Shown piece by piece: positions 924 to 50,865 of a stretch of 50,865 bases of DNA (position 1 is the stretch's first letter; every line of letters starts with the position of its first letter). The position numbers were made by a program, and so were the translations under genes. This DNA is from Escherichia phage vB_EcoS_swan01: sequence record NC_048202.1. The stretch is one strand, 5' to 3'. Under the pieces are notes generated by a model. The model was given only the letters and a program-made list of their open reading frames with translations. It searched no databases and had not been told where the DNA came from.

Positions 924-2903
924 ATGGCGATTTACAGACAAGGCCAAGCGTCTATGGACGCGCAAGGTTATGTAACTGGTTACGGTACAAAATGGCGTGA
1001 GCAATTAACATTGATTCGCCCAGGCGCAACTATTTTCTTTCTTGCTCAACCTTTGCAAGCTGCTGTGATTACAGAAGTGATTAGCGATACAAGCATTCGC
1101 GCAATTACTACTGGCGGCGCGGTAGTCCAGAAGACAAATTACCTGATCTTGCTTCATGACTCGTTAACGGTTGACGGTCTTGCGCAAGACGTAGCGGAAA
1201 CGCTGCGTTATTACCAGGGGAAGGAATCGGAGTTTGCTGGATTTATTGAGATCATCAAGGATTTTGATTGGGATAAGCTACAGAAGATCCAGGAAGACGT
1301 AAAGACAAATGCTGACGCAGCAGCAGCAAGCCAGCAGGCAGCTAAAACCAGCGAGAATAACGCGAAGACAAGCGCAACAAATGCAGCGAATAGCAAGAAA
1401 GGTGCTGATACTGCAAAGGCTGCCGCTGAATCCGCGCGCGACGCTGCAAACACTGCAAAGACTGGCGCTGAAGCAGCAAAGTCTGGCGCTGAATCCGCTC
1501 GTGACGCTGCGAACACTGCAAAGGCAGGAGCTGAAAGTGCGCGAGATCAAGCGGAGGAATACGCAAAGCAGGCGGCAGAACCTTACAAGGACTTATTGCA
1601 ACCGTTGCCGGACGTGTGGATACCATTTAATGACTCCCTGGATATGATTACCGGATTCTCGCCGTCATACAAAAAGATTGTTATAGGTGACGATGAGATC
1701 ACGATGCCAGGTGACAAGATAGTTAAGTTTAAACGAGCATCAACCGCTACTTACATTAATAAGTCTGGGGTGCTTACTAATGCTGCTATTGATGAACCTA
1801 GATTTGAAAAGGATGGTCTGCTCATTGAGGGGCAAAGAACAAACCTTCTTATAAATAGTACCAATCCTTCAAAATGGAACAAGTCATCAAATATGATCTT
1901 AGATAGATCAGGTGTAGATGATTTCGGATTCCAGTACGCAAAATTTACATTAAAACCAGAAATGGTAGGACAAACTTCAGCGATTAACATAGTAACCGTT
2001 TCCGGCAGTAGAGGTTTTGATGTAACAGGAAATGAAAAGTATGTAACCATATCATGCAGGGCGCAAAGTGGGACTCCAAATTTAAGATGCCGATTACGAT
2101 TTGAAAACTACGATGGATCTGCTTATGCATTTTTGGGTGATGCTTACGTAAATCTGACAGATTTATCAATTGAAAAAACTGGCGGCGCTGCAAATCGTAT
2201 TACTGCAAGGGCTGTTAAAGATGAAGCAAGCAAATGGATTTTCTTTGAGGCAACAATTAAAGCGCTTGATACAGAAAATATGATCGGTGCAATGGTGCAG
2301 TATGCACCAGCAAAAGATGGAGGGGGCACTGGTGCAGATGATTATATTTATATTGCTACCCCTCAAGTTGAAGGAGGTGTGTGCGCTTCATCGTTTATTA
2401 TTACAGAAGCGACTCCAGTAACACGGGCAAGCGATATGGTGACAATCCCAATCAAGAATAACCTTTATAATCTTCCTTTTACTGTTCTTTGTGAGGTACA
2501 TAAGAACTGGTATATAACGCCAAATGCTGCGCCTCGTGTTTTCGATACTGGAGGTCATCAATCTGGTGCGGCAATTATTCTTGCTTTCGGATCTGCTGAT
2601 GGCGATAATGATGGATTCCCTTATTGCGATATAGGTAAATCAAACAGAAGGGTTAACGAGAATGCGAAACTAAAAAAGATGATCATAGGAATGAGAGTAA
2701 AGAGTGATTACAATACTTGTTGTGTAAGTAATGCCAGAATATCAAGCGAAACAAAAACGGAATGGAGATATATAGTATCAACGGCTACTATAAGGATTGG
2801 CGGACAAACAAGTACAGGCGAACGCCATCTTTTCGGTCACGTTAGAAACTTCCGTATATGGCACAAGGCACTAACAGATCATCAATTGGGGGAAATTGTA
2901 TAA
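924..2903 (+). CDS. tail fiber protein
   Basis: 660-aa ORF with Ala-rich coiled-coil repeats (AESARDAANTAK x2) and a beta-rich C-terminal half; strong RBS; ATG at 924 inside track ORF 900..2903. Confidence 0.7.
   Translation: MAIYRQGQASMDAQGYVTGYGTKWREQLTLIRPGATIFFLAQPLQAAVITEVISDTSIRAITTGGAVVQKTNYLILLHDSLTVDGLAQDVAETLRYYQGKESEFAGFIEIIKDFDWDKLQKIQEDVKTNADAAAASQQAAKTSENNAKTSATNAANSKKGADTAKAAAESARDAANTAKTGAEAAKSGAESARDAANTAKAGAESARDQAEEYAKQAAEPYKDLLQPLPDVWIPFNDSLDMITGFSPSYKKIVIGDDEITMPGDKIVKFKRASTATYINKSGVLTNAAIDEPRFEKDGLLIEGQRTNLLINSTNPSKWNKSSNMILDRSGVDDFGFQYAKFTLKPEMVGQTSAINIVTVSGSRGFDVTGNEKYVTISCRAQSGTPNLRCRLRFENYDGSAYAFLGDAYVNLTDLSIEKTGGAANRITARAVKDEASKWIFFEATIKALDTENMIGAMVQYAPAKDGGGTGADDYIYIATPQVEGGVCASSFIITEATPVTRASDMVTIPIKNNLYNLPFTVLCEVHKNWYITPNAAPRVFDTGGHQSGAAIILAFGSADGDNDGFPYCDIGKSNRRVNENAKLKKMIIGMRVKSDYNTCCVSNARISSETKTEWRYIVSTATIRIGGQTSTGERHLFGHVRNFRIWHKALTDHQLGEIV
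1425..1523 (+). repeat. in-frame tandem coding repeat within tail fiber gene
   Basis: two near-identical ~36-bp units gctgaatccgc(g/t)cg(c/t)gacgctgc(a/g)aacactgcaaag separated by 27 bp. Confidence 0.6.
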
Positions 2904-3181
2904 TGCGTGATTTAACACTGAAATTTGTAGACAAGGCGGAGTTTTCCGCCTTTCTGGAAGAAATTGAATGGAACGAAAACGAATCCATTCAGGATGCAAT
3001 CCTGCTCGATGTAATCGGCAATACTTACACAGTAATTGCACGATCTGACGATGGCGATGAGATTGCGCGAAAGAACGACGGCTATTTCGTCAATGTGCGA
3101 ATCATTGATGATAAGTTTGATGCCGTAATTTTTAATGGATACGTGGCTGAGTTAGATCAGCCTATTAGAGAATGGGCTTAA
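2903..3181 (+). CDS. hypothetical protein
   Basis: ATG overlaps tail fiber stop (TAATG); 92 aa. Confidence 0.5.
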   Translation: MRDLTLKFVDKAEFSAFLEEIEWNENESIQDAILLDVIGNTYTVIARSDDGDEIARKNDGYFVNVRIIDDKFDAVIFNGYVAELDQPIREWA

Positions 3182-5385: not shown

Positions 5386-6441
5386 TTATAGATACTGCCT
5401 GAATTGAGCGCGTACCCAATCAGGAGTATCAAGATCAATTTCCGGTTGCCCGTTTGCATACGAAGGCCATTCGTCTAACTGCTGGCAAACGTTGAACTTG
5501 TTGATCACGCTCATGTACTGGATTCGCCCGATCTTCAATTGCTCAATATTCATTCGGAAAGCAAGCGGCAAGTAAGGCTCTTTCTTCTCCTGCGCAAGCA
5601 ATCTTACAATTACTGGCCTTTCCTCGTCTGGATACGCCTTTTTGAATAAGTCATGTTGCAAAGCCATTTTAAGATAATAGCCGTGATTGTAAGCCAGGCG
5701 CTGGAAGTCAACCGGATTTGCGCTAACCGTTGTTTTGTAGTCAGTGATAATCACCGCTTCTGGATAGGTTACTTCTTCATAAATCGGCCTGCCTTTTTCG
5801 TCGTAACCGTTAATGATTGTTGCCTTTACATCCTTGTTTACGTCAACGTGATCAAGACGCACTTTTACTTTTACGCCGTTGATGATCCCAAATATTGACA
5901 TTTCACGCTGCGCGGTTGGGCTGTTCATGCAAGCGTTATGCTCCGGTATGGCCTCAAGTACGCGCCGCATCGCTACACAGGCATCATAATCTTTAGCGTC
6001 TATTAACTGCACTCCGTCCGCTGCGGCCTGGCATTCTGCCATCATTTCGATAAGCCACCACACATTGAGATCCTCGCCGCACTTGTACAGCATTTCCAGT
6101 AATTCAGGGTATTGTTTACCCGTTGTACCTTTCAGGCCAAAAGATTTCAGCTTTGATGCTAACGCCGTTTGACTAGTGATCAGGTCTTTAAAATCATCCT
6201 GCGACGGTGCGCGGCGATATGTTTTTTCGAATAGCTCCTTGCTTTCAAAGTTGGTATGCGACTGCGTACCGAAAACAAGTGCTTTAGTTTCCTGGCGCGG
6301 CTTGTACTTCCAGTACGCCGGGCAAGTGCTGTAAATCTCAGCTAGGCTGGAACCGCTGACATATTCAGCCGTCCACGCGTTAGGATCATGATAAAGCTCG
6401 TTGCTCATTTCTTCGCTAGTGTAGGCGTTAAAATCACTCAT
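5386..6441 (-). CDS. recombination exonuclease (PD-(D/E)XK-type)
   Basis: 351-aa ORF with D...DYK nuclease-like motif (VIITDYKTT); first gene of the leftward recombination operon. Confidence 0.55.
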   Translation of the reverse strand: MSDFNAYTSEEMSNELYHDPNAWTAEYVSGSSLAEIYSTCPAYWKYKPRQETKALVFGTQSHTNFESKELFEKTYRRAPSQDDFKDLITSQTALASKLKSFGLKGTTGKQYPELLEMLYKCGEDLNVWWLIEMMAECQAAADGVQLIDAKDYDACVAMRRVLEAIPEHNACMNSPTAQREMSIFGIINGVKVKVRLDHVDVNKDVKATIINGYDEKGRPIYEEVTYPEAVIITDYKTTVSANPVDFQRLAYNHGYYLKMALQHDLFKKAYPDEERPVIVRLLAQEKKEPYLPLAFRMNIEQLKIGRIQYMSVINKFNVCQQLDEWPSYANGQPEIDLDTPDWVRAQFRQYL

Positions 6442-6471
6442 CTTTAATGCTCCTTGTTGCTTTATGCGTGC

Positions 6472-6499
6472 ATTGTAGCCATTTGGTTGATTTAGTCAA
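6472..6499 (-). promoter_or_regulatory. sigma70-like promoter (TTGACT-N16-TACAAT) for the exonuclease/Erf/SSB operon
   Basis: near-consensus -35 and -10 hexamers read on the minus strand about 30 nt upstream of the exonuclease start. Confidence 0.5.
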
Positions 6500-6639
6500 T
6501 AGCTGTTTTGTTTTTTCTGTTTTCTAAACGTTCTCATATGGCAAGAAAACAGATTTGACTCATAAGTTAATGATTAATGTGTGTTATTTTTCTTGTTCCC
6601 ATGTTCTCTCAGATACGCCGGATTATATACATACACATG

Positions 6640-6800
6640 AATGATGGCACATACAGATACTCAGAAAGAAAAATCACCACAAACAACCAAAACCACAAGA
6701 AACGCAGATAACAAGAAAAAACAAATATACATACATAAATAAATAAACTATTGATTTTATATGTATATATCTATTTTATTGATTGTTTATTGATCTTATG
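6640..6800. repeat. AT/CA-rich intergenic element, related to the one at ~36790-36960
   Basis: shared strings such as cacaaacaacc...aacaa(a)aag and ataaataaataa; TTATTGAT repeats; sits in a ~500-bp non-coding strand-switch region. Confidence 0.5.
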
Positions 6801-6866
6801 TTGTCTAAATTTTGCGCTAAATTTACGCCGTCTTAAATTCGATAACACCGGAAAACAAAAAATAAC

Positions 6867-6911
6867 AAATAGCACTTTTTGCTAAACGCGATGCCCAAGA
6901 TCGTGTATAGT
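6867..6911 (+). promoter_or_regulatory. motif promoter-like element (AAATAGCACTTTTTGCTAAA, ~21 nt spacer, TATAGT)
   Basis: conserved motif plus -10-like hexamer about 30 nt upstream of the lipoprotein gene ATG. Confidence 0.55.
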
Positions 6912-6942
6912 TGCATCCAACAACAACTAAGGAGTATTGAAG

Positions 6943-7212
6943 ATGAAAAAGTTAATCGCAGTTATCGCCACTGTAGCCGCTCTGACAGGATGCGCAGCGT
7001 CGCCTACTGGCAACTTCAAGGAGATCGATTGCACGGCAAAATTTAACGTTAAAACATTCCCTGTTAACGGATTCCATGAAGTCAAAATTAATGCAGTCCG
7101 CGAAAACAGATTCAGCCAAAAGCAATACAGGTTGAGCGTTGACAATAAAGAAGTTAAATTTATCAACCGTTGGCAAAATGAAAGTAAATTTATTGATTTG
7201 AGGTGTAATTAA
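6943..7212 (+). CDS. lipoprotein, candidate superinfection-exclusion protein (Cor/Llp-like)
   Basis: signal peptide with lipobox LTGC, about 89 aa, AAGGAG RBS. Confidence 0.55.
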   Translation: MKKLIAVIATVAALTGCAASPTGNFKEIDCTAKFNVKTFPVNGFHEVKINAVRENRFSQKQYRLSVDNKEVKFINRWQNESKFIDLRCN

Positions 7213-21357: not shown

Positions 21358-21400
21358 TTTGTTTCCTCCATAAAAGGCCGTTAAATGTAACGGCCTAGAT

Positions 21401-21445
21401 GATAGCACTTTTTGTTAAAGCGTCAAAGCGTTTTTATGTTATTCA
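21401..21445 (+). promoter_or_regulatory. motif copy inverted relative to the late genes (GATAGCACTTTTTGTTAAAG)
   Basis: conserved motif; a weak sigma70-like arrangement TTGTTA-N17-TATGTT points antisense into 21439..22452; in gene sense the motif precedes a hairpin and the capsid gene RBS. Confidence 0.4.
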
Positions 21446-22452
21446 GGATCGGTAATGGTTAGTCTTTGCTGACCTTTAACGCCAGAACCATCCGCAGCGG
21501 TCCAGATAACATCAACTTCGCCAGCGGCACTGGTAGTTACCAGTCCAGTGCTAGGATCTACGGATGCAAAATCACCATTTGACAACGACCAAGATCCGGA
21601 TTTATTGGTAGCATCTTCTGGAGCAACGACAACGCTCGCCTGAACGGTTTCACCAACAATTGCAGAATTTTTCTCAAGGCTTACGGTTGCACTAGCGACG
21701 CTAACAACAGCTTTTTCGAATTGATAAACAATCGCGGCCTTAGTCTTGCTTGCATCGTTAGCCGTCCAATTTACGTTTACACTACCGAATGCATCACCAC
21801 CAACAGGAGTTAGAATACCGGTATCGGCATCAATAGTCGCAATGTTTACAGCATCAACAGACCAAACACCAGTTTTATCGGTGGCGTTGCCAGGCTCTAC
21901 TGTGATACTGCATTTTACAGGAGCATTGTTTGGCTGCGGACTATCCTTGTCAGTGTTAATTGTTGCAGACTCTACCAGCACCACATGAGGCGGAGGGGGT
22001 GGAACGATTAGAGCATTTTGCTTCACCTGAACCTCAATAATGTGACCGTCTTCGTGCTTAACAAAGCCACCAGCAAAGGTCCAGCCAACATAATCATCTA
22101 CGCCAGTTACTACTCCTCCAACACCGATTTTTAGTTTTGAGAATGATTTCGGGGCTTCACTAAGAGAAGTAAGCGCCCACACCCGACCGTGAGAAACGAC
22201 GTTACACACCTCTCCGTCGAGAATTTTACCGCTCAGGTGCTCATATTGGGAACGAAAAGCGATGCCGTAAGGAGTTTCACCATCAGAAAGCGCCGTCACA
22301 ACCCTCATTCCATCCACTATTCCGACAACCCGAACCGCTGATCCAAACTCAATATCACCTTGAGCAACACAAGCGCCATCAATGTTATAGGTTGAAGTAT
22401 CAGAGAGATTGCCAGGACATGCATAGTGCATCATTAAATTTTCATAAGCCAT
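21439..22452 (-). CDS. structural protein with Ig-like C-terminal domains (capsid decoration candidate)
   Basis: N-terminal ~150 aa paralogous to 22512..22991; C-terminal half has tandem Ig-like (Big_2-type) repeats. Confidence 0.5.
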   Translation of the reverse strand: MAYENLMMHYACPGNLSDTSTYNIDGACVAQGDIEFGSAVRVVGIVDGMRVVTALSDGETPYGIAFRSQYEHLSGKILDGEVCNVVSHGRVWALTSLSEAPKSFSKLKIGVGGVVTGVDDYVGWTFAGGFVKHEDGHIIEVQVKQNALIVPPPPPHVVLVESATINTDKDSPQPNNAPVKCSITVEPGNATDKTGVWSVDAVNIATIDADTGILTPVGGDAFGSVNVNWTANDASKTKAAIVYQFEKAVVSVASATVSLEKNSAIVGETVQASVVVAPEDATNKSGSWSLSNGDFASVDPSTGLVTTSAAGEVDVIWTAADGSGVKGQQRLTITDPE

Positions 22453-22464
22453 AATAATTTCTCC

Positions 22465-22496
22465 ATAAAAAAAGGACCATCCTTTTGGATGGTCCC
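22465..22496 (-). terminator. rho-independent terminator
   Basis: ggaccatcc-tttt-ggatggtcc hairpin followed by T-run on the minus strand. Confidence 0.65.
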
Positions 22497-22511
22497 AATA
22501 TTAAACTCTAA

Positions 22512-22991
22512 TTACAGTTGCTGCAACTGAACTTCTACAAGATTAATATCTTTATATTTGACAAATCCGCCAGCGTAGGTCCAGTTAGTAGTGATTGTGC
22601 CGTCTGATTTTTCATGACCATCAACATCAAGTTTAACGGCAGTGCCGAAGACTGGTGCTGTGCTGGACTTTGAACGAATCCAAACTCTGCCAGATGTCAT
22701 TACGTTGATTGCGCTTCCTTCTTCATAAACCATCTGTCCTTGAGAGTTAACAGTTTGCCAGTGAGAACGAATTGCCACACCGTAAGGATATTTTTCTGTT
22801 TCCATGCTCTTAATAAGTTTATGACCTTCAACCGCTTGCACTGCGACAACCTGCACGGCAGTACCAACAAGAATTTCCCCACCTTCACTAACGACGCAAG
22901 CGCCGTCAATGTTGTATTTAGAAGTGTCGGCAACCATGCCAGGTAGTGCGATCGCCATAGTGTCAAAATAACTTGCTCCAATTTTAGCCAT
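22512..22991 (-). CDS. structural protein, paralog of the N-terminal domain of 21439..22452
   Basis: shared motifs DTS(K/T)YNIDGACV, YG(V/I)A(I/F)RS, GRVW and AGGFVK. Confidence 0.5.
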   Translation of the reverse strand: MAKIGASYFDTMAIALPGMVADTSKYNIDGACVVSEGGEILVGTAVQVVAVQAVEGHKLIKSMETEKYPYGVAIRSHWQTVNSQGQMVYEEGSAINVMTSGRVWIRSKSSTAPVFGTAVKLDVDGHEKSDGTITTNWTYAGGFVKYKDINLVEVQLQQL

Positions 22992-35861: not shown

Positions 35862-36128
35862 TGTCTCGACGGTCATATGTTCTGTCTTCGTGCCTTTGCC
35901 ATTGCTTTTCGACACTTCCCAGCTAGTCGTGCCCTTACAGTTGGTGAAGTAAACAGTGCGATCGTCATAGAATCGGTAAACGGTGCAACCGTCAGCGGTG
36001 AATAGCTCCCTTACGCTGTAGTCATCGCCAGGGTTAGCCATCTGCACATTGCCAACATGCGCGCCATCTTCTTTGCATCCGGTCAGGAATGCCATTGCCG
36101 CCAAAACGCTGATTAATGCCTTTTTCAT
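35856..36128 (-). CDS. lipoprotein
   Basis: start at MKKALISVLAAMAFLTGC (signal peptide plus lipobox); ATGA overlap with the upstream gene. Confidence 0.55.
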   Translation of the reverse strand: MKKALISVLAAMAFLTGCKEDGAHVGNVQMANPGDDYSVRELFTADGCTVYRFYDDRTVYFTNCKGTTSWEVSKSNGKGTKTEHMTVETK

Positions 36129-36589
36129 TGCTCTTCCTCTTTGATGATTTCGCGGATCATATCCTGGTAGCGGCTTACGCCCTCGCAAGCCCCAGCCAGT
36201 TTATCCCCTTCCAGGTCCACGATGTTCGGGATTGCTGCCAGTATGCGATCGGCAAACTTTTTGATCGCCCTTGCCTTGATGGCTGGCAATTCTTCTGGTG
36301 TGATGATTTTCCTTTTCGATTCGCGGACCATGCGGAAAACGTAAAATTTATCATCTTCCGTTTCCTCTACCTTGATACTTACCCGACCTGCGGCCCTTAC
36401 TTCTGGAACGCGGTTGATAATGGTCCGGCTGTAGGATGAACTGCGCGTGATCTTGTAGCAGTCGTCACCGCTTAACATTCCGGCCAGGTCAATTAGTGAC
36501 ATTTTATACTCTTCAATATCGCCACTAGCCAGGCGGCGACCAAGCTCGCGAAGCCAATCGCAATAGTCCTTAGTGGTCTTCTGTTCCAT
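36125..36589 (-). CDS. hypothetical protein (first gene of a leftward operon)
   Basis: start at MEQKTTKDY with GGAGGAAAGGA RBS, about 30 nt downstream of a consensus sigma70 promoter. Confidence 0.55.
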   Translation of the reverse strand: MEQKTTKDYCDWLRELGRRLASGDIEEYKMSLIDLAGMLSGDDCYKITRSSSYSRTIINRVPEVRAAGRVSIKVEETEDDKFYVFRMVRESKRKIITPEELPAIKARAIKKFADRILAAIPNIVDLEGDKLAGACEGVSRYQDMIREIIKEEEQ

Positions 36590-36620
36590 TTCCTTTCCTC
36601 CAGTTGTTGACTGTTGGCGC

Positions 36621-36649
36621 ATTATAAAAGCTATTTGGTGCGTGTCAAT
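36621..36649 (-). promoter_or_regulatory. consensus sigma70 promoter (TTGACA-N17-TATAAT)
   Basis: perfect -35 and -10 hexamers with 17-bp spacer read on the minus strand, upstream of gene 36125..36589. Confidence 0.65.
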
Positions 36650-36789
36650 GTTTTTGTTGTATTCAAAACGTTACCAATATCGAAAAACTACAAAATCATG
36701 CGCAAGTTATTGATTTCAGGGCTGTTATTTTTCTGTTCACGCTGTTAACGCAATCCGCCGGAAAAAGTATATATACATATGCAATCCGC

Positions 36790-36960
36790 CGCGCGCGCAA
36801 CTATCCATATATACCCACACACAACCACACCATAACCAACAAAAAGCACTGTAACAGTGAGAACAAAAAGAAAACATTATAGATATATATAAATAAATAA
36901 TCTTTATTTTCAATGTATTATAGAGGGATTTTTTTGTTTTTTTCGTTTTCGCTACACCGG
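36790..36960. repeat. AT/CA-rich intergenic element, related to the one at ~6640-6800
   Basis: shared strings ccacacacaaccacacc...aacaaaaag and ataaataaataa; direct repeat gcaatccgccg x2; inside a 660-bp non-coding region. Confidence 0.5.
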
Positions 36961-37083
36961 AAAACCGCGCGGAAACACGCCGCCTGAAATCGGTAACAGG
37001 GGTGAACAAAAGACAACAACCGCTGACAGCCAGGCGGAAAAGTGAGGCAAGAGGGGAAGGTTTCACTATCTCCCCTGCAACCA

Positions 37084-37180
37084 ATGATTAAACGTGATTA
37101 CTTTTCTCATCAAATTTGCAAAGGCAATCATCATTTTGACGTGATTTGATTACGAATGATTACTTTTGATTATTTCGATC
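37084..37180. repeat. iteron-like direct and inverted repeats of ATGATT/TGATTAC
   Basis: at least 5 copies of (A)TGATTAC(TTTT) within ~100 bp just upstream of the first rightward motif promoter. Confidence 0.5.
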
Positions 37181-37201
37181 ACAATCCTGGTGCTAACCGT
37201 C

Positions 37202-37247
37202 AAATAGCACTTTTTGTTAAAAATCAGGCCGCCTGATCGGGTACATT
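37202..37247 (+). promoter_or_regulatory. motif promoter-like element (AAATAGCACTTTTTGTTAAAA, 22 nt, TACATT)
   Basis: first promoter of the rightward small-gene block; leader CATCGAAACGAACC precedes the RBS. Confidence 0.6.
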
Positions 37248-37282
37248 ACACACATCGAAACGAACCGCTCAGGAGATAGTAA

Positions 37283-37555
37283 ATGAACATCAGCAAAACC
37301 ACTTTCAATTTCGCTAAGCGTCACGGTCTGGAACTGACTGTTGAAGATTTTGGCGATGTTCTGCAACTCTGCATTTGGGAAGCAGATAACGATTGCGAGT
37401 GGCTTTGCTCTTATCGTATCAACTACGATTGCTTGACCTGGCACGGCAATATCTATCTGCCGCAAGAAGTGAAAGAAGAATTGCCAGCGACTATCAACAA
37501 CGAAGTTTTCTTGCGCCAGGTGCTGAAATTTATCAGTAAGGAGATCAAAAAATAA
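37283..37555 (+). CDS. hypothetical protein
   Basis: 90 aa, AGGAGA RBS. Confidence 0.55.
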   Translation: MNISKTTFNFAKRHGLELTVEDFGDVLQLCIWEADNDCEWLCSYRINYDCLTWHGNIYLPQEVKEELPATINNEVFLRQVLKFISKEIKK

Positions 37556-37821
37556 TGGCGGTGATTACCGAAAATGATTTGGATCTGGCGGAGGCGTTTT
37601 GCAGGGCCGCCAGGGCTAACCTGGATGTGACCACTAAATTTCTTCCGGCGCGACCACTCTTTTCGTGTGCGCCCGTGAATAAACCGACTCGCGTAATGAT
37701 CGTGATTGAAGGTGATGGCCTGTACGCTGAAAAGACGTTCCACATCAGCAACATTAAGGGCCGTGCTGATTTTATCAATGATGTTTGCTTATTGCAGGAG
37801 AAGAAAAAATGTTGGATGTGA
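37555..37821 (+). CDS. hypothetical protein
   Basis: TAATG overlap with upstream gene. Confidence 0.5.
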   Translation: MAVITENDLDLAEAFCRAARANLDVTTKFLPARPLFSCAPVNKPTRVMIVIEGDGLYAEKTFHISNIKGRADFINDVCLLQEKKKCWM

Positions 37822-38018
37822 TCAAGAAAGCACATGAGATGGGTATGGATGTTTTAATCACTGACGCGCGACGCTATAACCGCTCAATGCCTGAAAATAT
37901 GGTTGTAGTCATCGTGCATAATCTTAAGTTTGAATGCCGCGCAATTTTTGAGAAGCAGGATAAAGAGTCTCAACGCTGTTTTATCAACGAAGTTTGCGAT
38001 CTGTATGGGAGGATCTGA
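37809..38018 (+). CDS. hypothetical protein
   Basis: start at MLDVIKK with AGGAGA RBS. Confidence 0.45.
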   Translation: MLDVIKKAHEMGMDVLITDARRYNRSMPENMVVVIVHNLKFECRAIFEKQDKESQRCFINEVCDLYGRI

Positions 38019-39718: not shown

Positions 39719-40429
39719 ATGTATAAAGGTTTAATATTCTCCCTATTTGATGGATCTGGTAAAGCAGTTAAAGATTGGGCTGATAATGGCTATAAGTGCA
39801 TTTGCTTTAATGCTGACGGCGGCGATCACGGTGATTACCAGTCAGTGCGCATACAGCATGAGAATATCGAATACGTTAACGTCTGGATTGATGATGCTTT
39901 TTATGTTAAGGCAATCAATAATGAGTGGGGCAATCCTGATTTTATTATGGCGTTCCCTCCTTGCACCGACCTTGCAAATAGCGGATCTCGCCATTGGGCC
40001 AAAAAACGCCTTGAGAATCCATCGTTCCAGGATGAGGCCGCCGACACTTGCAGAATCGCGGCTGATATAGCTGATTATTTCGGTGTTCCTTACATGATCG
40101 AAAATCCGGTTGGCAAGTTGTCAACGTTATGGCGTAAGCCTGATTATACGTTCCATCCGTGCGATTACGCTGGCTATCTGCCGGAAGATGATAAACATCC
40201 CGACTTCCCTGATATTATTCCGGCGCGTGATCGCTATTTTAAGAAAACGTGCCTCTGGACTGGCAACGGCTTTGTTATTCCTCCGCGCGCTTTAATCCTG
40301 CCGAAAGAGGAAGACAAAGATAATCCAGGCTGGGCCAAAACTGGCGGCAAGTCATCGCGCACAAAGATGATCCGCTCCCTCACTCCGCGCGGATTTGCTC
40401 GCGCCGTCTTTGAGTCAAACTCAAAATAG
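39719..40429 (+). CDS. DNA (cytosine-5) methyltransferase-like protein (putative)
   Basis: motif I-like LFDGSG, motif IV-like FPPCTD...SG and motif VI-like ENPVG in the canonical order; start could also be ATG 39713. Confidence 0.45.
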   Translation: MYKGLIFSLFDGSGKAVKDWADNGYKCICFNADGGDHGDYQSVRIQHENIEYVNVWIDDAFYVKAINNEWGNPDFIMAFPPCTDLANSGSRHWAKKRLENPSFQDEAADTCRIAADIADYFGVPYMIENPVGKLSTLWRKPDYTFHPCDYAGYLPEDDKHPDFPDIIPARDRYFKKTCLWTGNGFVIPPRALILPKEEDKDNPGWAKTGGKSSRTKMIRSLTPRGFARAVFESNSK

Positions 40430-40469
40430 CACTTTTTGTTAAAAGCCAGGTGTAAAAACCTGGCATAAT
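40424..40469 (+). promoter_or_regulatory. motif promoter-like element (AAATAGCACTTTTTGTTAAAA, 22 nt, CATAAT)
   Basis: TAG stop of the upstream gene lies at motif positions 4-6; inverted repeat in the spacer; leader CATCGAACAAACAAAGGAG. Confidence 0.6.
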
Positions 40470-41171: not shown

Positions 41172-42752
41172 ATGTTTTCATTAGAAACGAACAAATTAAC
41201 TCCACAACAAATAATCGCTATGGCTGAAAGCCAGAACCTCTCACCAGTTCGCGTATCAATTCAGGCTAACGGCTATCGCCAGTCGTCCAGCTTTTGGGGC
41301 GACGTAAAGGATGTGAATAGCGGTCACGATCGCTACCCCGTTATTTCTCTTGGTAATGATATTGATGTTGTCGGCAAGTTATCACGCAGCATTGCGCGAT
41401 CCGTTCAATTCCCTGAATCATCGGCTTACATGCACTTTATCGGCTGCATTTCTGCCGCTATGCTTGGACGCTTTACGGTTGACTATCACGGAACCGATCA
41501 GCCGACTGCGCTTTACGTCGTTACAAGCCAGCCGCCGTCAACTGGTAAATCTGCGATCAACAGCATGGCTATTGCTCCGATGATTGCGGAAGTTGAGAAG
41601 ATCAACGAGCAACGCCGCAAGGAAAGAAAGAAAATACAGGCAAAGCTGGCAGGTCTTGCAAAGGAGATGAAAAGCGAAAGATCCGGCGCTGATATGGAAT
41701 CTCTATACCAGGAAAAAGAGGATCTGGAGGAAAAGCTGGAAAAAATGTGTGATATAACTTTTCCTGTTTCAGATACAACTCCAGAAGGCTTGGCGAAAAT
41801 CAACAACAAGCAAGGTAACTTTGCCGTAATATCTGATGAAGCAACAAGTATTAACAGTCTGTTAGGCTTGACCTATGCAAATAGCGAAAGGAAGACTAAC
41901 AGTGAGTTAGTGCTTAAGGCGTGGGATAATGGTCACGTATCAATTGCCCGTGCTAATGCTGACAATAATATGAGTTTTCGCGCGCTTGGATGTATGAGCG
42001 TCATAGCCCAGGATGAAACGATAAGCGGAATCATGGACGCTGGATCGCGAGGCATCGGTGTTAGTGAGCGTTTTTTGTTGGTCCGCGAGGAATCATTCTT
42101 AGGCCGTCGCTCATTCATTGATGAAAATGGTGATTCTACCTATGAGGCGGTGGATTCTGAATTGAAAGCCCAATATTATCAATTGGTGCATAACATCATG
42201 AGCGAATCAAATATATCGCTGAAAATAAGCCGTTCAGCTATGCGAGTGCTCAACATTGCTCGCCAGGATATGGAACCGCATCTTGCAGACGGAGGAAAGT
42301 ATTCTCATACAATGTTACGCGGTGCGCTGGGTAAAATGGATAAACAGGTGATCAGGCTTGCTTCCGTCCTGCATGTTATCCGTAACTGGTTTAATCCTGC
42401 CGGATACCCGCAGAAGTCGAAAGAGATCGACGTGGAAACAATGCAAGAGGCGTTGATCATGTTTCAGGAATTGAGCAAAACATACATTAGCGCCGCCAAT
42501 GCTTCTGGTTATGCTGGTGATGATGCTGAAATGGGTAAATTGATTGAATTGATCACGAGGCACGGCAAGGCTAATAAAGGGATTCTGAATATCCGCGCCC
42601 TGTACGAATCAGCGAGAAAGGTAAAACCTTTCGTTGGTCAGGCTGGCGTAATGAAAAGGATAGAAGGGCACTTACTGCCAATGCTGGAAGAAAGAAATTA
42701 TGTTTGTGTGATTAATGGTGTTATTTTTGTCAATCCAATACTGCTGGGATGA
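41172..42752 (+). CDS. P-loop NTPase, replication-associated (putative)
   Basis: 526 aa; Walker A-like SQPPSTGKSA; no further family assignment possible by eye. Confidence 0.5.
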   Translation: MFSLETNKLTPQQIIAMAESQNLSPVRVSIQANGYRQSSSFWGDVKDVNSGHDRYPVISLGNDIDVVGKLSRSIARSVQFPESSAYMHFIGCISAAMLGRFTVDYHGTDQPTALYVVTSQPPSTGKSAINSMAIAPMIAEVEKINEQRRKERKKIQAKLAGLAKEMKSERSGADMESLYQEKEDLEEKLEKMCDITFPVSDTTPEGLAKINNKQGNFAVISDEATSINSLLGLTYANSERKTNSELVLKAWDNGHVSIARANADNNMSFRALGCMSVIAQDETISGIMDAGSRGIGVSERFLLVREESFLGRRSFIDENGDSTYEAVDSELKAQYYQLVHNIMSESNISLKISRSAMRVLNIARQDMEPHLADGGKYSHTMLRGALGKMDKQVIRLASVLHVIRNWFNPAGYPQKSKEIDVETMQEALIMFQELSKTYISAANASGYAGDDAEMGKLIELITRHGKANKGILNIRALYESARKVKPFVGQAGVMKRIEGHLLPMLEERNYVCVINGVIFVNPILLG

Positions 42753-46479: not shown

Positions 46480-46525
46480 ATTATGCCCGACAAAATGCCG
46501 GGCGTTTTAACAAAAAGTGCTATTA
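46480..46525 (-). promoter_or_regulatory. motif promoter-like element (AATAGCACTTTTTGTTAAAA, 22 nt, CATAAT)
   Basis: follows the stop of 46523..46780; inverted repeat in the spacer; conserved leader. Confidence 0.6.
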
Positions 46526-47549: not shown

Positions 47550-47595
47550 ATTATGGCGCAATCCATCGCGCCAGTTTTAACAAAAAGTGCTATTT
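47550..47595 (-). promoter_or_regulatory. motif promoter-like element (AAATAGCACTTTTTGTTAAAA, 22 nt, CATAAT)
   Basis: TAG stop of the VRR-NUC gene embedded in the motif; drives the Dam gene. Confidence 0.6.
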
Positions 47596-48009: not shown

Positions 48010-50006
48010 TAAACAAACTCCCGTTTTGCAATGTTATCCTCACCTTTGCCGTTTTTGCGATGCGTTACGCGTACAGGCGGCATGATGTGATGAGCGTATG
48101 ACATTATTTTACGAGCATTTCTATAGCTCGCCACCATACCAGCAATCTTGCGATCCGGTATGTGCTGCAATGCTATTTTTCTCCATATCGTCCGGCAAAT
48201 GTTGCTTTCTGACTCAGGGAAAAATCTTTCGTATGCCTTGAACGTGTCGCCGTTGGCCTCAAGCTCATAGCAAAAAATAATTCCTTTCTGGTTTTTCGTC
48301 ATATCAACGCGGAAAGATTTAACGTTGCACCAATCGTTTTTGGTGTAGTGCTTACCGCTTAACTTCTCGTTAGGATCGACAAGAGAAATATCGCAACAAC
48401 GGCATACTCTCGCCACTACGTCGTTTTTTGTTCCGCAACCGCGCTTGATTATCTTTTTCGTTCTCTGATCTACCTGGTCCTCGCAAATTCTGTAAGTCCA
48501 AAAATGCTCACATCGCTTCCCGTTATCGTCTACGTGCATACATCGGCGAGCGTAAAAGCTGTTTAGCGTTCCACATATCGGACAAGTCTTAGGCTCTTTC
48601 CCGTTTGTAAATCTCTTTTGGAATTGCGCTTGCTCAAGGATTGGATCGAAATACAAATCACCTAACTCATCCATAGTACCTGCAAAATCCAATACAAGAT
48701 GATCTTTTTTCTTGAATCCCTGCTCAATGTGCCATTGCTTAAGCAGTCGCATGCCGCGCCCCAAAAGCTGGATAAGCAATGTTAGAGATCCTATCTTTCT
48801 CAGTATTACAGAAGTATCCCAAAACGGAACGTTAACGCCAGTGGTAAGCGCCTGTACCTGGAAGATGTATTTTACTTTTCCCTCGTATGCCTCCCTCAGC
48901 CACTCTTTACGCTGATTATCTCCAGTCTTGCCAGTTATGATCCTGTATTCAACGCCTGGCGGCAGTGCGGCGGCAGCCTCCTTGCAGTGCCTTTCCCCTG
49001 CGCATGTAACTAAAACTCCGTTCCTGTCTTTGCATATCTCATGGACTTTAGCCATGATTTTCTGTGTCATTGTTGCGTCTTGATGGATCTTTTCTTCCAT
49101 CTTGCGCAATGTTTTAGCGTCAAAGTCTGAAACGCCATCCTCGCTACTGGCTTCGAACTCTGAAAGGTCATAACCCAGGTCGCCTACGTCGCCGAAGTTT
49201 GTTGGCACTACCGAACCGAATTTGATTAAGTAGTTTGTGTCTATGTTAGTCACCTGCTCACGCCAGAATCCATTTTTGTTCTTATCTTCAACCAGTATTG
49301 GAACCACGCCGCGAAACTCAGATCCAGTCATGCCGAATATTCGCAATTCGTGCCCGTATGCCTCGCGACACCTACGCATCATTTCCATGATTATTACGGT
49401 GTACTGTGTGCGCCCTGTTCCGAACATTGGATCGCCATTGGAATCAAATTGCTGTTCTTCTCCAATCAGTACAGGCAAATCCTTCTTAGTGGTCATCTGC
49501 TGGTAAGATTCATTATTTTCTATCGCGTCCGCGAGATCCTCCCAATCCACCTGGTGACATTCATCAATACCGATAACGTGCGGAACATAATCACCTAACG
49601 ACTTAAACAATCCGTTTACTACAGTGCCCTCAGAACCGACTACGATCGGAAAGTATGCGCTTTTTGTTTTCAGTCCGGCGCAATAGATTGAGTTTGGCAC
49701 GCCAAGATTGCTGATCTCTTCCGAATCCTGATCAACAATTTCAGCCTGGCGAGCAAGGACCATCATTTTCAATCCCATTTTGCGGCATTGCGCCGCAACC
49801 ATCGCAAACATCAATGTTTTGCCAGCCGATACAGAAGCCTTAACAAAGAAAGGATGCTCATAGTTTTTCATGCGCTTTGCGATCTCTGCATACGCAACGC
49901 ACTGATAAGGATAAGGCACTATATTGCCAACCGTGAATCGCTCTTGGATGCTTTTTATTACTGCCTCGCCTAATGCTGATATTTGTTTTTCGATATTTGG
50001 AATCAT
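48009..50006 (-). CDS. SF2 DNA helicase (DEAD/DEAH-like) with C-terminal Cys-rich domain
   Basis: Walker A VSAGKT, DECH box, and multiple CxxC pairs in the C-terminus. Confidence 0.8.
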   Translation of the reverse strand: MIPNIEKQISALGEAVIKSIQERFTVGNIVPYPYQCVAYAEIAKRMKNYEHPFFVKASVSAGKTLMFAMVAAQCRKMGLKMMVLARQAEIVDQDSEEISNLGVPNSIYCAGLKTKSAYFPIVVGSEGTVVNGLFKSLGDYVPHVIGIDECHQVDWEDLADAIENNESYQQMTTKKDLPVLIGEEQQFDSNGDPMFGTGRTQYTVIIMEMMRRCREAYGHELRIFGMTGSEFRGVVPILVEDKNKNGFWREQVTNIDTNYLIKFGSVVPTNFGDVGDLGYDLSEFEASSEDGVSDFDAKTLRKMEEKIHQDATMTQKIMAKVHEICKDRNGVLVTCAGERHCKEAAAALPPGVEYRIITGKTGDNQRKEWLREAYEGKVKYIFQVQALTTGVNVPFWDTSVILRKIGSLTLLIQLLGRGMRLLKQWHIEQGFKKKDHLVLDFAGTMDELGDLYFDPILEQAQFQKRFTNGKEPKTCPICGTLNSFYARRCMHVDDNGKRCEHFWTYRICEDQVDQRTKKIIKRGCGTKNDVVARVCRCCDISLVDPNEKLSGKHYTKNDWCNVKSFRVDMTKNQKGIIFCYELEANGDTFKAYERFFPESESNICRTIWRKIALQHIPDRKIAGMVASYRNARKIMSYAHHIMPPVRVTHRKNGKGEDNIAKREFV

Positions 50007-50038
50007 CTTAAACCTTTAAAAAATGCCATTTGGAGTAT

Positions 50039-50082
50039 ATAATAGACTCATTACAATAAACTGTTTTAACAAAAAATGCTAT
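50039..50082 (-). promoter_or_regulatory. motif promoter-like element (ATAGCATTTTTTGTTAAAA, 22 nt, TATTAT) in a divergent region
   Basis: drives the helicase gene; on the opposite strand the motif abuts the GAGGTGA RBS of the HTH gene. Confidence 0.55.
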
Positions 50083-50093
50083 GAGGTGACTAG

Positions 50094-50570
50094 ATGAAAG
50101 ATGCACGAATTGCAGTATCTACGGGTGAGATCGACAAGCGCACTATTAACGGTAACAACGGAACGCGACGAGGTAAAGACAAAAAACCACGAAAACACCG
50201 AACCGGATTTCTTATCCTGCGAGATGAGGTAAAAGCAAGCCTGAAATCTCGCCTTGACATTCTGATCGAGTATTACGGCGGCGTTCCTGCTATGGCTCGA
50301 CGTCTGCGCGTATCTCAGCAAGTCGTTAACCAGTGGCGAAAGCGTGGTATGATTTCAGCCGCTGGAGCACAAAAGGTGCATAACGACTACAAATATAATG
50401 GATGCAAAGGATACCGCGCATCATTTTGTCGTCCAGATCTGCGGTTTGATTCTAACGGTAAGCCTCTTACTACCCGTTGCGACAAATACGATATGTTGCG
50501 CGTAGTCAAAAATTCAGACTACGAACCAGGCGGACGATTCTACAAAGGTGATAACAGCACGAATAGCTAA
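50094..50570 (+). CDS. HTH DNA-binding protein (Cro/YdaS-like, putative transcriptional regulator)
   Basis: GGVPAMARRLRVSQQVVNQWRKRG helix-turn-helix segment; basic N-terminus; followed by a terminator. Confidence 0.55.
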   Translation: MKDARIAVSTGEIDKRTINGNNGTRRGKDKKPRKHRTGFLILRDEVKASLKSRLDILIEYYGGVPAMARRLRVSQQVVNQWRKRGMISAAGAQKVHNDYKYNGCKGYRASFCRPDLRFDSNGKPLTTRCDKYDMLRVVKNSDYEPGGRFYKGDNSTNS

Positions 50571-50625: not shown

Positions 50626-50865
50626 ATGAATACTGAAAACTTTATGACCTATCAGAAAGAAGATGTTTTGCCATATATGAAGGGGTTATGGCGTGAAGCA
50701 CTACAAAGCATTTGCGGACTGCATAGCGATGTTTTCAACAAAAAGCATCAACCTTGCCCACACTGCGGCGGTAAGGATCGTTTTAGATGGACTGATAAGC
50801 TAAATGAAGAGGGCGACGGCGGCGCGATCTGCAACGTGTGCGGCAACGACACGGGGATCGGTTGG
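50626..50865 (+). CDS. primase-like protein, N-terminal part (continues at 2..817 across the terminal duplication)
   Basis: ATG at 50626; zinc-ribbon CPHCGGKDRFRW...CNVCGNDTGIGW; ORF runs off the window end into the 127-bp duplicated segment. Confidence 0.6.
   Translation, partial: MNTENFMTYQKEDVLPYMKGLWREALQSICGLHSDVFNKKHQPCPHCGGKDRFRWTDKLNEEGDGGAICNVCGNDTGIGW
50739..50865. repeat. terminal direct repeat, identical to 1..127
   Basis: exact 127-bp duplication of window start and end. Confidence 0.9.

Follow-up and report, generated by a model that had tools for sequence, protein, structure and literature searches.

Paired origin-like cis elements and a probable packaging segment in the T1-like coliphage vB_EcoS_swan01

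T1 belongs to the seven classical T phages; its family, the Drexlerviridae, is among the commonest coliphages and fermentation contaminants. Where do such phages begin to copy their DNA? In the T1-family genome papers (TLS 2024, PMC11447400; SU57 2020; AAS23 2021), no origin, iterons or origin-binding protein was found. Here we consider one locus of Escherichia phage vB_EcoS_swan01 (NC_048202.1; the window is the whole record of 50,865 nucleotides (nt)), a complete, circularly closed T1-like coliphage of the Drexlerviridae, subfamily Tempevirinae. The locus is the region 36590-37282, which we call element A, together with its 6.6-kb partner at 6472-6887, element B. The original prediction described 36623-37282 as the second copy of a strand-switch element and implied that it acts in replication. 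We find a compound cis-acting region that is more structured than that description: an origin-like module (module 1), probably a packaging start (pac) segment, and a standard promoter with a 21-nt box. Module 1 has, in our judgment, about an even chance of being one of two replication-origin-like sites of the phage, a function read from its architecture.

With this reading, the origin of a classical phage family, so far unmapped, could be put to a direct test. It offers two precise candidate origins, one at about 36.73-37.01 kb and the other at 6.59-6.86 kb. An MCM-like winged-helix helicase, a P4-α-type primase and the DUF7174 protein are put forward as candidates acting in trans, and the probable pac segment is set apart from the origin-like module. 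If true, it would provide a tractable Escherichia coli system for the loading of MCM-family helicases at origins, as well as cis elements for engineering T1-like phages or phage-dependent plasmids.

Two colinear copies of one module

The interval 36590-37282 holds no credible gene and lies between a leftward gene at 36125-36589, which encodes the DUF7174 protein, and a rightward gene at 37283-37555. That it is the partner of the 6.6-kb element was borne out by local alignment of 36590-37290 with 6440-6950, which scored 92 compared with 23.0 ± 2.6 for shuffled sequences (maximum 32) and 48 for the reverse strand. The similarity is carried by four colinear blocks:

36649-36781 with 6509-6639: shared block 1, 70% identity
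36828-36918 with 6675-6766: shared block 2, 74% identity
36977-37019 with 6825-6868: shared block 3, 77% identity
37201-37221 with 6866-6886: shared block 4, 95% identity

No third copy was found in the whole genome, and T1 and TLS likewise carry two elements each. The elements are also kept across 28 distinct A-type and 42 distinct B-type loci (70 copies).

The limits of the repeated unit emerge from a comparison with phage JK16, which matches this genome at 98-100% almost throughout; within the interval it is ~99% identical rightward from ~37013 and heavily diverged to the left. Its cassette from 36140 to ~37012 is a different allele, in which the DUF7174 gene and module 1 have been swapped together; the two DUF7174 proteins share 30% amino-acid identity, and the non-coding DNA of the cassette is alignable mainly in its AT-rich core. 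Identity to JK16 is 99.7% for the primase, 100% for the Cro/YdaS-like helix-turn-helix (HTH) protein, 99.7% for the superfamily 2 (SF2) helicase, 100% for the DUF3987 helicase, 98.9% for the small terminase subunit TerS, 100% for the large terminase subunit TerL and 99.4% for partner element B. We therefore divide the interval into an exchangeable module 1 (36621-37010; paralogue 6472-6860) and a module 2 (37010-37282) that is specific to copy A. The single element originally outlined is therefore shared with B in its left part, but its last ~270 nt (37010-37282) lie outside the repeated unit.

Strand switching does not define the element either. In TLS, the B-type copy (L094 28707-29117) sits between two co-directional genes, the tail protein gene tspJ and recE, and its far side has no 21-nt box; this arrangement ties the module to the recE-side promoter instead of to a strand switch. 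Genes diverge at three points in the vB_EcoS_swan01 genome (~6.5-6.9 kb, ~36.6-37.3 kb and ~50.0-50.1 kb), and the third, at 50006-50094, where the SF2 helicase operon meets the HTH-primase operon, has no origin-like module. This junction measures only 88 bp and contains a minus-strand 21-nt box and σ70-like hexamers.

Facing repeat pairs flank the most easily melted DNA

Module 1 of element A is composed of the following parts, in which class-1 pairs are tandem pairs of the half-site TGTTNNC and IHF is integration host factor; repeat counts marked TRF are from Tandem Repeats Finder:

36621-36648, minus strand: σ70 promoter PL(A), TTGACA-N16-TATAAT, with -35 at 36648-36643 and -10 at 36626-36621 (12/12 match)
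36649-36672, no strand assigned: T-rich block directly upstream of the -35, conserved with B 6509-6536
36703-36715, minus strand: predicted IHF site with core consensus AATCAATAACTTG, in the conserved block TAAGTnnnTGAT and some 85 nt upstream of PL
36734-36749, plus strand: class-1 repeat pair TGTTCACGCTGTTAAC left of the core, half-sites 9 bp apart (TRF: CTGTTAACG x2.1)
36750-36791, plus strand: two copies of GCAATCCGCCG flanking TATATATACATAT, including the near-palindrome AATCCGCCGGAAA
36798-36847, plus strand: A+C-only tract (43/50 bases A or C), holding the CA-rich tract at 36815-36840
36859-36876, minus strand: class-1 repeat pair, TGTTTTCTTTTTGTTCTC as read on that strand, directly next to the core and within a 26-nt direct repeat (36851-36876 with 36993-37018)
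36876-36951, no strand assigned: AT core and T-run, candidate DNA-unwinding element, 86% A+T over 36877-36926
36992-37008, minus strand: class-1 repeat pair TGTTCACCCCTGTTACC right of the core, facing the pair at 36734 and containing one exact P4-type octamer, TGTTCACC
37010-37015: junction of modules 1 and 2, from the JK16 comparison

Element B presents the same order of parts:

6472-6887: element B overall
6594-6608, plus strand: repeat pair
about 6676-6725: A+C tract
about 6713-6812: AT core, holding an IHF consensus at 6744-6756 (minus strand)
6841-6857, minus strand: repeat pair
6867-6887: 21-nt box

The two AT cores are the least stable 100-bp duplex windows of the whole genome, at -102.0 and -107.8 kcal/mol (A, -107.8), which places them 4-5 standard deviations below the genome mean of -136.5 ± 6.9 kcal/mol per 100 bp. 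The A and B cores of T1 and TLS also rank first and second in their genomes. Across genera, the core and its immediate flanks form the most conserved block of the A and B copies (75-85% identity), and the DNA further out diverges. In 26 of the 70 copies, a consensus IHF core was located no further than 66 nt to either side of the core centre, compared with 1.9 ± 1.4 after dinucleotide shuffling.

Around these cores the repeats are organized in a consistent way. Tandem pairs of the form TGTT[ACT][ACT]C-N1-4-TGTT[ACT][ACT]C occur five times in the 50.7-kb genome, always in A or B, and each element has a plus-strand pair to the left of its core and a minus-strand pair to the right, so that the pairs face each other. 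Single half-sites with the same pattern (TGTT[ACT][ACT]C) are also in excess, with 14 observed against 1.84 expected (P = 1e-8). Among relatives, all 14 pairs found in 250 kb of B loci anchored on exonuclease VIII were within 300 nt of the core, as were 9 of the 16 pairs in 429 kb of A loci anchored on the helicase (0.6 expected). The remaining seven A-locus pairs are one conserved coding motif, TGTTTTCRTGTTCCC. T1 uses the variant TGTTACAC, with four copies in A and B together and none elsewhere; L081 has ten copies of TGTCCCA, paired at distances of 9-11 bp and placed to either side of its core; and an apparent conflict between the repeats of L080 and L082 resolves to a degenerate motif that they share.

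The coding motif TGTTTTCRTGTTCCC encodes the N-terminus of a small early gene product (peptide ...WEHEN...), mimics the pair pattern and accounts for all hits outside the elements in relatives, for example ~1.7 kb to the right of the core in L049 and at 49674 in L094. Further leads on repeats were set aside: AACAARAA repeats, although enriched ~14x, are of low complexity and overlap the 21-nt box motif; a comparison of lineage-specific repeats with the winged helix of the helicase for co-variation was uninformative; and what is annotated as 'repeat_region' in Jahat and haarsle amounts to short repeats of a trivial kind.

Between the left pair and the core lies an unusual strand asymmetry. The most A+C-rich 50-nt plus-strand windows in the genome are those of B (45/50 at 6676) and then A (43/50 at 36798), against a mean of 25.1 ± 4.1, and relatives keep both the side and the strand of this bias (A+C fraction 0.64-0.70 left of the core and 0.46-0.47 right of it). 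The CA-rich tract ccacacacaaccacaccataaccaac that had been pointed out is present at 36815-36840 and forms part of this feature. The duplicated unit GCAATCCGCCG is equally real, with exact copies at 36750-36760 and 36781-36791, but it belongs to the variable layer, since 36750-36791 falls in the part exchanged together with the DUF7174 gene in JK16.

On the left, the module ends in a promoter. It had been given as a perfect TTGACA-N17-TATAAT; the hexamers are indeed perfect, PL(A) being the sole 12/12 σ70 match in the genome, but they are 16 nt apart and read on the minus strand, the promoter firing leftward away from the element, into the DUF7174 gene (36125-36589) and the long leftward operon. 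B has an equivalent promoter, TTGACT-16-TACAAT (6499-6472, minus strand), as do the A and B copies of the relatives examined, judged by eye; the TAAGTnnnTGAT block is likewise kept in relatives, again by eye. From its sequence, the T-rich block at 36649-36672 may be UP-element-like. The open reading frame (ORF) at 36737-37084 (minus strand, 115 amino acids), dismissed earlier as probably not coding, had no match in Pfam or PHROG and is split in JK16 into fragments of 43 and 57 amino acids; it is very probably non-coding.

Candidate proteins and a proposed mechanism

The primase encoded by the phage carries a zinc ribbon of the primase-helicase kind and shows homology to the primase domain of P4 α (tblastn E = 6e-14, α residues 20-263); no homologue of the P4 α helicase or of its C-terminal origin-binding domain was detected in the phage by tblastn. 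Two types of helicase are encoded, DUF3987/MCM-like and SF2. A fold search identified the DUF3987 helicase (41172-42752) as MCM-like, and a sequence search against the PDB returned nothing; the protein has a C-terminal winged helix (amino acids ~446-526). DUF3987 proteins have been described as superfamily 6 (SF6) replicative helicases with a C-terminal winged HTH, usually paired with primases (PMC4889955).

The DUF7174 gene (36125-36589, minus strand; also L097 15854-16318) is the first gene of the main leftward early operon. Its position is conserved across the Drexlerviridae and its product evolves fast (23-41% identity to T1 and TLS), with at least two alleles on an otherwise 98-99% identical backbone. 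Modelling suggests a winged-helix domain plus a helical hairpin, a weak fold assignment.

Facing pairs round the most meltable DNA, frequent IHF sites, the A+C tract and outward-firing promoters together amount to the architecture of an initiator-dependent origin, and we can propose how it might work. A phage DNA-binding protein would occupy the facing TGTTNNC half-site pairs that flank the 86% A+T core; candidates are the C-terminal winged helix of the DUF3987 helicase, the neighbouring DUF7174 protein or possibly both. Opening of the core would be aided by IHF-type bending and by negative supercoiling behind the outward promoters (PL on the left, the 21-nt-box promoter on the right). The A+C-only tract would yield single strands that do not pair with themselves, on which the helicase and the P4-α-type zinc-ribbon primase could land unhindered by secondary structure, with extension by host DNA polymerase III. 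We infer the identity of the binding protein, melting and priming at module 1, and the firing of either copy from the anatomy described above.

Comparison with characterized origins

Several known systems share parts of this design. In Gram-negative phage-inducible chromosomal islands (PICIs), an AT-rich stretch, the putative melting site, lies between two sets of short repeats (PMC6092414). Elements A and B resemble the iteron-flanked origins of PICIs and Staphylococcus aureus pathogenicity islands (SaPIs) in having an AT-rich, easily melted region with repeats on both sides (here degenerate) and, as proposed, in being served by a primase and a self-loading winged-helix initiator-helicase. 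They differ in that the helicase is an MCM-like DUF3987 protein and not an α/Rep helicase of superfamily 3 (SF3) and is encoded 4 kb away instead of beside the site, in that the repeats are degenerate 7-mers in pairs, and in that each genome has two such elements.

Bacillus phage SPP1 provides a precedent for two sites: its oriL and oriR are similar origins ~13 kb apart, each combining direct repeats with an AT-rich unwinding element, and one lies in a long intergenic region (PMC6316719). SPP1 is also a virulent pac-type siphovirus. It uses the origin binder gp38, the loader gp39 and a DnaB-type helicase, unlike the MCM-like helicase here; its oriL is inside gene 38, whereas both copies here are intergenic; and the sites have no sequence similarity. 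No DnaB-type helicase is apparent among the DUF3987/MCM-like and SF2 helicases of the genome, no direct search for gp38 or gp39 homologues having been made.

The ori and crr sites of P4 offer a third parallel, again with two cis elements kilobases apart, tandem pairs ~9 bp apart and both orientations round AT-rich DNA, and with a primase homologous to the α primase domain. The annotated P4 record has 16 type 1 repeats TGTTCACC, including tandem pairs such as crr CTGTTCACACTGTTCACC, which the pair at 36734-36749 resembles; the repeats are strikingly alike, P4 having TGTTCACC and crr CTGTTCACACTGTTCACC where this phage has CTGTTCACGCTGTTAACG. Only one exact TGTTCACC is present here: A contains two TGTTCAC, of which one is TGTTCACC, and a single TGTTAAC, and B, which lacks TGTTCACC, uses TGTTCCC, TGTTCTC and TGTTATC. 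We rejected strict membership of the P4 ori/crr class given the few exact octamers and the missing α-type origin binder, and the similarity of the repeats may be due to chance or convergence. A full-text literature search for TGTTCACC returned primer noise only. By analogy, then, the A and B elements may well work like iteron-flanked origins with a DNA-unwinding element, paired as in SPP1 and P4, which is a statement about likeness and not about class.

No earlier description of the paired elements was found in the T1-family literature searched, the 2004 T1 genome paper being outside that search, and the daunorubicin/BASEL preprint contains no Drexlerviridae transcript or replication maps.

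Module 2 and the probable packaging start

The copy-specific segment to the right of the junction has two parts:

37085-37195, no strand assigned: TGATT/AATCA cluster, including TTTGATTACG x2.8 at 37145-37172 (TRF)
37202-37247, plus strand: 21-nt box AAATAGCACTTTTTGTTAAAA (37202-37222), spacer hairpin and -10-like TACATT (37242-37247), the promoter region of gene 37283-37555

TGATT/AATCA occurs seven times in the 120 nt at 37085, compared with a genome mean of 0.62 and a next-best window of four, and the segment is single-copy, being absent from B. In TLS, restriction analysis placed the pac end about 5,882 bp from a HindIII site (PMC11447400). A HindIII site is found at 5876 of the TLS record, and because the distances match, base 1 of that record can be equated with the pac end; it falls in the homologous copy-specific segment, within a run of AATCA repeats. 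The T1 reference record opens at the corresponding place, where its 2.8-kb terminal repeat starts, and the SU57 paper put the start of the terminal repeat in the same untranslated region. Base 1 of TLS and of T1 align to about 37117 and 37147 here, although the alignment is poor. We consider 37085-37195 to be the pac region, with packaging leftward, at odds slightly better than even; counting against this placement, it leans on that alignment and on restriction-level mapping in another phage. Module 2 would comprise a packaging start, probably at the TGATT cluster, and after it a 21-nt-box promoter of the ordinary kind.

At the start of the copy-specific segment is an inverted repeat, GAGGGGA...TCCCCT (37051-37076), and relatives have a C-rich TCCCC(T)C motif at the same place, for example four copies of CTCCCCC in L057.

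Weighing the origin reading against alternatives

A replication-origin-like cis element, the idea implied by the original prediction, is the best-supported reading after testing, and we hold it at even strength. Several observations weigh against it. Its support is architectural, and the repeats are short and degenerate (TGTTNNC). DnaA boxes occur around the cores at background frequency only, and GATC is depleted there in relatives (0.2-0.3x, that is, 3-5-fold), neither of which is expected of an oriC-type origin. A second repeat class (CGGAAAA/GCGGARR) that seemed family-wide by eye was enriched only 1.8x in A copies and not at all in B copies, and was dropped as a defining feature. JK16 shows that identical replication proteins tolerate a very different left half of module 1, which implies either loose recognition or other reader proteins. 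Concerted evolution or co-evolution of A and B within genomes was not clearly seen. In any case, one would expect AT-rich promoter regions to rank with the least stable DNA. A strong σ70 promoter is built into the module, as are a UP-like block and an IHF site, which makes it plausible that much of the module serves transcription only.

The most substantial rival follows from that last point: module 1 could be the extended upstream region of the strong σ70 early promoter, an early-transcription hub in which a UP element and IHF sites are joined by operator arrays where a phage regulator binds, for instance DUF7174 or the Cro/YdaS-like HTH protein (50094-50570). The hub would serve to boost early transcription and then to shut it off, the core being curved or H-NS/IHF-bound DNA and not an unwinding element. 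A σ70 promoter adjoins the module in the copies examined, A has the only perfect consensus of the genome with the T-rich block and, ~85 nt upstream, the IHF consensus, and only three σ70-like promoters were reported in the TLS genome (PMC11447400). The swap together with the first gene of the operon, whose product looks winged-helix in modelling, is also the pattern of a regulator-operator cassette. The geometry fits less well: the conserved core is 230-300 nt upstream of the promoter and pairs extend to -390, beyond usual bacterial upstream regions, and it is the AT core that is most conserved, not the promoter-proximal part. It is not obvious what facing pairs round the most meltable DNA, together with a strand-asymmetric A+C tract, would do in promoter control, and the divergent promoter region at 50006-50094 does without the module. 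We regard this explanation as possible but doubtful. A bolder form of the origin reading is less probable still and should be taken as speculative: an exchangeable replicon cassette in which DUF7174 would be a new winged-helix initiator with its cognate origin, the facing pairs would load the MCM-like helicase head-to-head on the AT core, and B, located just upstream of the exonuclease VIII-Erf-SSB operon, would be a fork-stalling or secondary site like SPP1 oriR, switching replication to a recombination-driven concatemer mode. Such a cassette, if true, would be the bacterial-virus counterpart of archaeal and eukaryotic MCM origin loading.

Packaging could in principle claim the whole interval, shared module included, as a region that the small terminase recognizes; the copy at 6.6 kb would then be an ancestral or secondary pac site. 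Some pac and cos sites contain IHF sites and bent DNA rich in A+T. T1, TLS and many isolate records open inside this intergenic region, although most were probably opened there by convention after T1 and so are not independent evidence, and the TLS pac end mapped by restriction and the SU57 terminal repeat start fall here too. The mapped ends, however, align to the TGATT segment at 37085-37195 and not to the shared module, B lacks that segment, and JK16 combines a TerS 98.9% identical and a module 2 99% identical with a very different module 1, which makes this extension improbable. Even less credence attaches to a non-coding RNA, which might be a primer, a regulator or, CA-rich and unstructured, a sponge for some RNA-binding protein of the host. 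In favour are the CA/A-rich tract, which keeps its strand and position, a possible but weak rightward promoter seen by eye (TTAACG-17-TATATA, about 36745-36773) and a terminator-like hairpin on the minus strand (36859-36847). Against this, the -10 candidate is without the conserved final T and escaped the promoter scan, and the hairpin is not conserved in B. Rfam 15 gave no match at gathering threshold in the whole genome and, at E ≤ 1 in 36500-37400, chance-level matches to eukaryotic small nucleolar RNAs only. A stable hairpin or cruciform of the core is only weakly supported (folding z = -1.3 in A, no better than shuffles, and a modest -2.5 in B), and a micro-ORF starting at a shared CATATG was rejected because its ATG position is not conserved (TLS B reads ATG TGA). 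We think it just as unlikely that the region has no specific function and is an AT-rich inter-operon spacer serving as a homology patch for recombination between mosaic phages: the JK16 breakpoint does coincide with the conserved core and junction, and A copies evolve fast, but the two-copy architecture and the order of parts are retained across subfamilies, the repeat pairs of the genome are confined to A and B, and the core stays 75-85% identical across genera while its flanks diverge.

Additional observations on the genome and its relatives

GATC is absent from 36623-37176 (~550 bp, A) and from 6442-6791 (~350 bp, B). Genome-wide it is over-represented (307 sites, ~1 per 165 bp), and the phage encodes Dam-like methylases. 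The terminal 127 bases of the record are identical (1-127 and 50739-50865), so that it is a circularly closed assembly of the whole 50.7-kb genome; the primase gene spans the circular junction, from ~50626 to 817. Escherichia phage tunzivis is 98.9% identical over 36000-38000. Other segments replaced between this phage and JK16 are at ~1000-3000, ~21400-22900 and ~40500; they take in the tail-fibre region, one block among the head genes and one small block of early genes. The records MG0656xx ('Campylobacter phage') and OR786094 ('Streptococcus phage MBBL140') match the element and its flanks at 72-84%, like genuine Drexlerviridae, and their doubtful host labels may be due to contaminants or mislabelling.

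The 21-nucleotide box

The right edges of both elements are promoter-associated boxes of a kind found throughout the genome. Positions 37204-37220 and 6869-6885 match ATAGCACTTTTTGYTAA without mismatch, and this motif has 18 genome sites against 0.67 expected, 15 of them co-oriented with local genes; each is followed by a -10-like box ~21-22 nt downstream, a ribosome-binding site and a start codon. A '21-base intergenic repeat', aaATAGCACnnnTTGnTAAAA, has been described in TLS, T1 and Rtp, its function being listed as an open question (PMC11447400). The right edges (37202-37222 and 6867-6887) are exact members of this T1-family repeat, intergenic and oriented with the downstream gene, and in A the box start at 37202 is 81 nt from the ATG at 37283, near the ~76 nt typical of the family. 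The repeat, however, explains only ~20 nt of the similarity between A and B and is not specific to them: it is an ordinary box and not a defining part of the paired element.

The spacer between box and -10 is often a G+C-rich hairpin whose sequence varies by site while pairing is kept (for example, 40426-40442, 46507-46523 and 47577-47593), with a mean DNA minimum free energy of -2.69 compared with -1.01 ± 0.25 for shuffles. Several box sites also share the leader CATCGAAACGAAC after the -10. Judging by its sequence position, centred near -42, the box is possibly a class-II-activator-type site.

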